A stretch of 17,317 bases of DNA from a virus. Lineage: Duplodnaviria > Heunggongvirae > Uroviricota > Caudoviricetes. Below the pieces are notes generated by a model. The model was not told the origin of the DNA, did no database searches, and worked only from the letters and a program-made list of their open reading frames with translations. The stretch lies in IMG/VR virus record IMGVR_UViG_3300029745_000045; one strand, written 5' to 3'. Each line of letters opens with the position of its first letter. The first letter of the stretch is position 1. Positions 13,468 to 13,842 of the stretch are shown here, piece by piece. Both the position numbers and the translations under genes were made by a program.

Positions 13468-13842
13468 ATGAAAAAGGATCTGAAAACGCTGGCGCTGGCC
13501 AGACTGTCAGGGTTTCGTCATAAAACGGTGAAGGTGCCGGAATGGGGTAATGTCAGCGTGGTGCTGCGGGAGCCTTCGGCAGAGGCCTGGTATCTGTGGC
13601 AGGAAGTGCTCAATGGTGATGGAGAGGATGACGATACCCTGTCGGTGGTGGCGAAAACCCGCCGTAACCTGGAAGCGGATGTGACGCTGTTCTGCGATGT
13701 CCTGTGTGATACGGATCTGCAGCGGGTGTTCACTCCGGACGACCGTGAGCAGGTGCTGGCCGTCTATGGTCCGGTACATGCCAGGTTGCTGCGTCAGGCA
13801 CTGGAACTGATCGCTGATGCAGAGTCGGCCAGAAAAAAGTAG
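13468..13842 (+). CDS. Tail assembly chaperone (lambda gpG analogue)
   Basis: Internal ATG of the 13420..13842 track ORF. 124 aa, acidic; sits between the major tail and tape-measure genes; ends in a slippery heptamer just before its stop. Confidence 0.7.
   Translation: MKKDLKTLALARLSGFRHKTVKVPEWGNVSVVLREPSAEAWYLWQEVLNGDGEDDDTLSVVAKTRRNLEADVTLFCDVLCDTDLQRVFTPDDREQVLAVYGPVHARLLRQALELIADAESARKK

Follow-up and report, generated by a model that had tools for sequence, protein, structure and literature searches.

A probable programmed -1 ribosomal frameshift signal linking the G and T tail assembly chaperone genes of a lambdoid Escherichia coli prophage

Programmed -1 frameshifting in the G/GT genes of long-tailed phages was reportedly described by Xu, Hendrix and Duda in 2004, and the G/GT system of lambda is associated with Levin, Hendrix and Casjens (1993) and with Xu, Hendrix and Duda (2004, 2013, 2014). 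In phage lambda, the genes are found in the order V, G, T, H, and a low-level -1 shift takes place near the end of G at the slip site G_GGA_AAG, which is shared by mEp390. In lambda, the tape measure protein is bound by G and by the G portion of GT, and the major tail protein by T; tail assembly needs both G and GT, in a G:GT ratio of ~30:1, and neither occurs in the virion (PMC5009743). In HK97, the equivalent proteins are gp13 and gp14 (PDB 2OB9), and in the sequence record of the phage, a joined CDS is described as "translated due to a -1 frameshift". Similarly, genes 69/69' of Bcep176 are annotated as a -1 frameshift join and as "lambda G / T equivalent". The heptamer A_AAA_AAG is also that of dnaX (gamma/tau) in E. 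coli, which depends on the weak pairing of tRNA-Lys(UUU) with AAG (PMC3711429; PMC4066793). The dnaX signal includes an upstream Shine-Dalgarno (SD)-like stimulator and a downstream hairpin, operates at ~50%, and leads to a shorter product.

A direct comparison can be made with genes ECs1801/ECs1802 of the E. coli O157:H7 Sakai prophage Sp9, which appear in the literature as cluster A_AAA_AAG_25 (PMC4066793) and as GeneTack cluster Phage_TAC / #10 (PMC3711429). Sharma et al. (2014) listed ECs1801 as a tail assembly chaperone in a cluster marked "true" (Suppl. Tables S4, S6, and S7), counted the cluster as one of five prophage clusters whose motif is conserved, and equated it with GeneTack cluster #10; the motif ends at residue 124, and the frameshift and zero-frame products are 226 aa and 124 aa, respectively (PMC4066793). 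The three heptamers that work most efficiently in E. coli include A_AA.A_AA.G, and A_AA.G leads the tetramers (PMC4066793). Using a GST-MBP reporter in E. coli, Antonov et al. (2013) obtained 7% +/- 0.79 frameshifting with one construct (Suppl. Table S2), a value measured at the level of protein that cannot by itself separate ribosomal from transcriptional slippage, and 6% with a second construct carrying a G_GGA_AAG site of the mEp390 type (PMC3711429).

The stretch of DNA analysed in this study (the window) is 17,317 nucleotides long and represents a lambdoid E. coli prophage resembling Sakai Sp9 and Stx phage 2851. Compared to Sp9, the window shows no difference at the slip site: the 100 nt around it (window 13801-13900) are identical and the geometry of 124 / 226 / 124 aa is shared. 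The G proteins are identical at 122 of 124 residues, and ECs_1801 likewise lies between the genes for the major tail protein and the tape measure, whereas the window prophage is set apart by a tail-gene deletion and a portal frameshift. The insert of the construct that gave 7% corresponds to window 13813-13887, a length of 75 nt, with no mismatch. Thus, the reporter test proposed in the initial annotation of this DNA had already been published on the identical 75 nt. The 7% obtained with the window sequence is about twice the efficiency implied by the ratio of 30:1 in lambda.

The coordinates of the features at the locus are collected in Table 1. The G ORF opens with an ATG preceded by AAGGGGA. 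In comparisons with Pfam, the G part matched Phage_TAC_1 over its full length (E 1.1e-61; 206.7 bits, cut-off 25) and no other family was returned, and the T part matched Phage_tail_T (PF06223, the lambda gpT type; E 6.1e-19; 68.7 bits, cut-off 25.9), both matches exceeding the curated gathering thresholds. In the PDB, the G part matched 2OB9, "Tail assembly chaperone", with an E value of 4.5e-46. PHROGs labelled the G part as "tail assembly chaperone" and the T part (phrog_337) as "tail protein". A single profile, phrog_14766 (224 positions), covers G at 2-122 and T at 125-224 and must be a family of fused GT proteins because it aligns to both halves. NCBIfam models gave no match for G, T, or GT. 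The G/T pair is flanked on its 5' side by a V-like gene that is named "major tail subunit" in relatives and on its 3' side by the tape measure gene. The lambda-like G/GT arrangement recognised in the initial annotation is therefore supported by the presence of a Phage_TAC_1 and a Phage_tail_T coding region between the genes for the major tail protein and the tape measure. The T domain of lambda is homologous to that of the window (PF06223), whereas the G part of the window is Phage_TAC_1, the HK97 type, and the slip site differs from that of lambda.

Table 1. Coordinates of the G/T locus and of the two flanking genes in the window
Feature	Position	Strand	Remarks
Major tail (tube) protein gene, C-terminal Ig-like domain	12737..13453	+	Pfam Ig_3, Phage_TTP_11, Phage_tail_2
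G-type tail assembly chaperone ORF	13468..13842	+	124 aa plus TAG; zero-frame product
G/T overlap; outside it, no -1 shift can link the two frames	13818..13842	+	25 nt
Slippery heptamer A_AAA_AAG	13833..13839	+	In phase with the G ORF
G stop codon TAG	13840..13842	+	Abuts the heptamer; possible "shifty stop" context, putative stimulator
Predicted GT product	join(13468..13839,13839..14147)	+	226 aa
T part, -1 frame	13839..14147	+	102 codons plus TGA; Pfam Phage_tail_T
Nine -1-frame codons VARPEIRFL	13839..13865	+	Upstream of ATG 13866
ATG of T in public annotations	13866..13868	+	No Shine-Dalgarno sequence
Tape measure protein gene	14195..16306	+	Pfam TMP_3, Phage_HK97_TLTM

Elsewhere, the window consists of a head and tail module of the HK97-like kind, whose genes encode both terminase subunits (small and large), a protease-capsid fusion, a portal, a connector, head completion proteins, an HK97 gp10-like protein, and a tail completion protein. 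The protease-capsid fusion gene (6470-8407) is a 645-aa ORF combining Peptidase_S78 (residues 48-152) with an HK97-type Phage_capsid domain (386-635), and its relatives are labelled either "prohead protease" or "major capsid protein". Neither a promoter nor a terminator was predicted within 13300-14300, which is consistent with a single transcript across V-G-T-H.

The sequence at 13830-13842 is cag AAAAAAG TAG, and the zero frame at the end of G is AGA AAA AAG TAG. The canonical A_AAA_AAG site described in the initial annotation is thus present and in phase with G, as the zero-frame translation also shows. It was rightly placed near the G stop, but not two codons before it: G ends with the sense codons AAA and AAG, which adjoin the TAG. 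In the -1 frame, a TGA at 13815-13817 is followed by 110 open codons, from 13818 to the TGA at 14145-14147; the ORF listed as 13866..14147 shares this frame. The description of a -1 frame that opens just upstream of the heptamer and runs into the gpT-like ORF therefore holds. Between 13818 and 13866 there is no ATG, GTG, or TTG.

The heptamer is unlikely to be where it is by chance. AAAAAAG is found in 7 copies on both strands of the window, compared to 2.26 expected, and 5 of these are on the + strand, where the copy at 13833 is the only one in phase with a long ORF. The overlap offers six in-phase heptamer positions. By our own estimate, which takes the 5 + strand copies over roughly 17,300 positions as the frequency, the chance of an in-phase AAAAAAG within them is ~0.002, and that of any X_XXY_YYZ heptamer is ~0.02. 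Across the 14 long + strand ORFs of the window there are 14 in-phase canonical heptamers, and only that at 13833 leads into a long -1 ORF (102 codons with a recognised domain). The other 13 were dismissed as frameshift sites, as their -1 extensions are short (1-69 codons). These include A_AAA_AAA at 1395-1401 in the antirepressor (ANT/KilAC) gene, with a -1 frame of 5 codons, and T_TTT_TTC at 6394-6400, one codon ahead of the stop of the large terminase gene, with a -1 frame of 7 codons; both are probably incidental.

Elements that could stimulate slippage were looked for on both sides of the heptamer. In the 20 nt upstream, there is no SD-like stimulator, the best anti-SD duplex (-3.0 kcal/mol) being at background. 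Downstream, the fold of the 91 nt at 13840-13930 is no better than that of shuffled sequences (z = -0.87), and RNAalifold predicted no conserved pairs among 23 distinct relatives. The only good hairpin downstream of the heptamer, GCGCUCC/GGGGCGC at 13874-13891, was rejected as a stimulator, as it begins 34 nt past the heptamer and coincides with the coding sequence of the conserved LALRLGR peptide. The locus thus has neither part that would complete a dnaX-type tripartite signal, that is, an SD-like sequence 6-17 nt upstream and a stem-loop or pseudoknot 5-9 nt downstream. Compared to dnaX, the window sequence has neither stimulator, shifts at ~7% rather than ~50%, and gives a longer rather than a shorter product. 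The signal appears to be minimal, consisting of a bare heptamer and the adjoining stop, as in lambda, whose G/GT pair is not known to have, and does not need, a strong RNA stimulator. A "conserved hairpin" was scored by Sharma et al. for cluster A_AAA_AAG_25, although most such hairpins were judged to be fortuitous (PMC4066793).

The heptamer and the stop codon, AGAAAAAAGTAG, are invariant in 79 of 79 close relatives (viral contigs; 54 distinct haplotypes), among which the nearest variable sites are at 13829 and 13858. In the 801 nt that surround the site, identity is 99.5% to Stx-converting and related lambdoid phages, among them JLK-2012, 2851, and YYZ-2008, with 92 matching phage records, and 100% to prophages of several E. 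coli chromosomes; of 5,426 complete E. coli genomes, 1,246 contain matches, at 2,908 places in total. At greater distance, tblastn with the predicted 226-aa fusion returned two-piece, two-frame matches in 198 phage records, including those of Klebsiella phages, Burkholderia phages, and HK97. The last of these shares ~60% amino acid identity over G plus T, the same Pfam families, and the same gene position.

The slip sites of more distant relatives were surveyed at 10 phage or genome loci and in 22 species-level relatives from GTDB genomes (44-64% identity), the latter being retrieved with a five-sequence enterobacterial G alignment. Two of the 22, from Leclercia (L023) and Ca. Symbiopectobacterium (L029), were left out as their G frame is disrupted. 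All 20 intact species-level relatives have an in-phase A_AAG inside the overlap. In nine, it is part of A_AAA_AAG immediately 5' of the stop; in eight, it follows a noncanonical P-site triplet (AGA-, AGC-, GGC-, or GGT-AAAG), again immediately 5' of the stop; and in three, it is part of the HK97-type G_GAA_AAG, five codons 5' of the stop. The stop codon thus immediately follows the A_AAG codon in 17 of the 20. The P-site triplet varies in the HK97-type family among AAA, GAA, GCA, GGC, and GGT.

In phi467 and 606R7, the A_AAA_AAG heptamer occupies the same place as in the window. At these two loci and in Pectobacterium and Brenneria, the first base of the heptamer is precisely where the -1 frame opens, and the overlap is only 10 nt, so that no alternative site is possible. 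A -1-frame stop codon immediately adjoins the heptamer in phi467, Pectobacterium, and Brenneria. In HK97, the 52-nt overlap contains a single in-phase A_AAG, in G_GAA_AAG (CGG GAA AAG; L002:663-669), which is noncanonical and lies five codons before the stop, unlike the canonical heptamer directly against the stop in the window. At sites of this type, which are also found in L014-L016, the P-site tRNA-Glu would mispair after the shift.

The sequence that follows the slip site is conserved as well. The distance from A_AAG to the T motif FLM-x-LALR is nine codons at all loci, HK97 included, except for mEp390, where it is ten. The -1-frame codons between the site and the annotated ATG of T are conserved as V-x-x-P-(G/L/E)-x-x-F-L in 26 loci from about a dozen genera that range in identity from 44% to 100%, and their synonymous variants include CCG/CCC/CCT/CCA for Pro, GGG/GGC/GGT for Gly, TTT/TTC for Phe, and CTG/TTG/TTA/CTC for Leu. 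This pattern is a protein-coding signature upstream of ATG 13866. Since no start codon reaches these codons, their conservation is evidence that translation enters from G. Both the site and the junction are kept across the 26 loci despite this divergence.

Collectively, these results indicate that the site is very probably a signal for programmed -1 ribosomal frameshifting in a G/GT pair of tail assembly chaperones of the HK97 type. Most ribosomes would translate G and terminate at the TAG. A few per cent would slip while AAA occupies the P site and AAG the A site, and we infer that the two tRNA-Lys molecules would move back by one base onto AAA AAA. The tRNA-Lys with the anticodon mnm5s2UUU is the only Lys isoacceptor in E. 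coli. After the slip, GTA at 13839 would be the next codon, and translation would continue in the -1 frame to 14147. The predicted product, GT, would have the sequence ...ESARKK-VARPEIRFLMRL... across the junction and would be made at a few per cent of the level of G. The analogy with lambda suggests that the tape measure protein would be coated by G and by the G portion of GT, and that the T domain would recruit the major tail protein. By the same analogy, a fixed G:GT ratio set by the frameshift would be needed for tail assembly, and neither protein would be found in the virion.

A broader reading of the family may be put forward tentatively, and we regard it as possible rather than likely. 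The conserved core of the signal would be A_AAG against the stop codon, with A_AAA_AAG as its strongest variant, and the stop itself may act as a stimulator, while the conserved Met of T might give some free T. In such a "shifty stop", slow termination would compete with slippage and would replace an RNA structure as the stimulator.

It is far less probable that T is an independent gene and the heptamer incidental, with translation starting at ATG 13866 either de novo or by termination-reinitiation after the G stop. The ATG is present and its Met codon is invariant in 26 of 26 relatives, public annotations start T at this position, and the G stop lies only 24 nt upstream, a distance that would allow coupling. 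However, the ATG has no Shine-Dalgarno sequence: its anti-SD duplex of -3.5 kcal/mol is at background (the median of the ATGs in the window is -3.1), compared to -5.8 to -12.8 kcal/mol for 12 real gene starts of the module. The T ORF thus has no start signal of its own and yet is coding upstream, as the nine codons conserved as amino acids through synonymous changes lie beyond the reach of any start codon. Lambda, moreover, reportedly makes no free gpT, as Levin et al. are said to have found in 1993, and the homologous pair of HK97 is annotated as a frameshift. Furthermore, the identical sequence gave the fusion product at 7% in the reporter (PMC3711429). The proposal in the initial annotation that the gpT-like ORF is a frameshift extension is borne out by these observations, and a start at 13866 may provide a minor additional route to T.

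The same GT protein could in principle arise by transcriptional slippage, if RNA polymerase added one A within the A6 run and so created the same RKKVARP junction. E. coli RNA polymerase slips appreciably at runs of ~8-9 or more A/T. Runs of 7-8 A are found at the slip site in several relatives (L018-L021, L026-L032, and phi467 at L003:660-672, TAAAAAAAAGTAG), and they are long enough for transcriptional slippage to contribute in those relatives. For the window, this origin of GT is the least probable of all. In its favour, the run is homopolymeric, the protein would be the same by either route, what the reporter measured was protein, and slippage of this kind would be more plausible at the A8 runs of phi467 and several relatives. 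Against it, the A6 run falls short of the length needed by the E. coli enzyme, and in 11 of the 20 intact relatives this position has no more than A_AAG, in a run of 3-4 A. The A6 run is likewise shorter than the An with n > 7 given for transcriptional slippage (PMC3711429). The relatives with AGCAAAG, GGCAAAG, and GGTAAAG have just three consecutive A, which argues for slippage of tRNA-Lys rather than of RNA polymerase. Mass spectrometry of the junction peptide cannot tell the two routes apart because both give ...RKKVARP....

The prophage copy in the window shows two apparent defects outside the G/T pair. First, compared to E. coli strain 2018-166, to which it is otherwise 99.7-100% identical, the window is missing 5,059 bp, with the junction at 15858-15861, where TTCA forms a microhomology of 4 bp. 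The lost sequence spans the C-terminal half of the tape measure gene, an M-like gene, a porin gene (ompC), L, K, and the 5' end of I, and the ORF at 14195-16306 is consequently an in-frame tape-measure::gpI fusion of 703 aa. In the prophage of 2018-166, a full-length OmpC porin moron lies between the M-like and L genes (L013:5284-6447). The junction was found in none of the 5,426 complete E. coli genomes and is either a private deletion or a misassembly. Second, the portal gene has G5 at ~9959-9963, compared to G6 in Sakai, which splits an 859-aa ORF into 8619-9983 and 9980-11203; the gene is unsplit (859 aa) in Sakai Sp9 and phage 2851. The two portal ORFs overlap as ATGA, and no Pfam family scored above its gathering threshold for the second of them (407 aa). 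An identical allele in strain DETEC-S792 is annotated by PGAP as "phage portal protein, frameshifted". Unless the deletion and the portal frameshift are assembly errors, this prophage copy is probably defective. With a truncated tape measure and a frameshifted portal, the G/GT pair may have no role left here.

In public annotations, including RefSeq for phage 2851 and PGAP for E. coli, G and T are two genes, with T starting at the ATG equivalent to 13866. T is entered as "tail protein" or "phage tail assembly protein T", a stand-alone protein of 93 aa, while the real product is almost certainly the 226-aa GT fusion. The fused sequence does not occur in a collection of 15 billion proteins, and this reflects gene callers rather than biology. 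The mechanism, the gene family, and the frameshift efficiency of this exact sequence are already known, and the locus brings no new biology in these respects. The value of the finding is practical, as it allows the annotation of numerous copies to be corrected; the point on annotation made from the sequence at the outset is valid but routine. What the family survey adds is a minor comparative observation: in HK97-type tail assembly chaperones, the slip site has as its conserved core the tetramer A_AAG, which in most cases abuts the stop codon.
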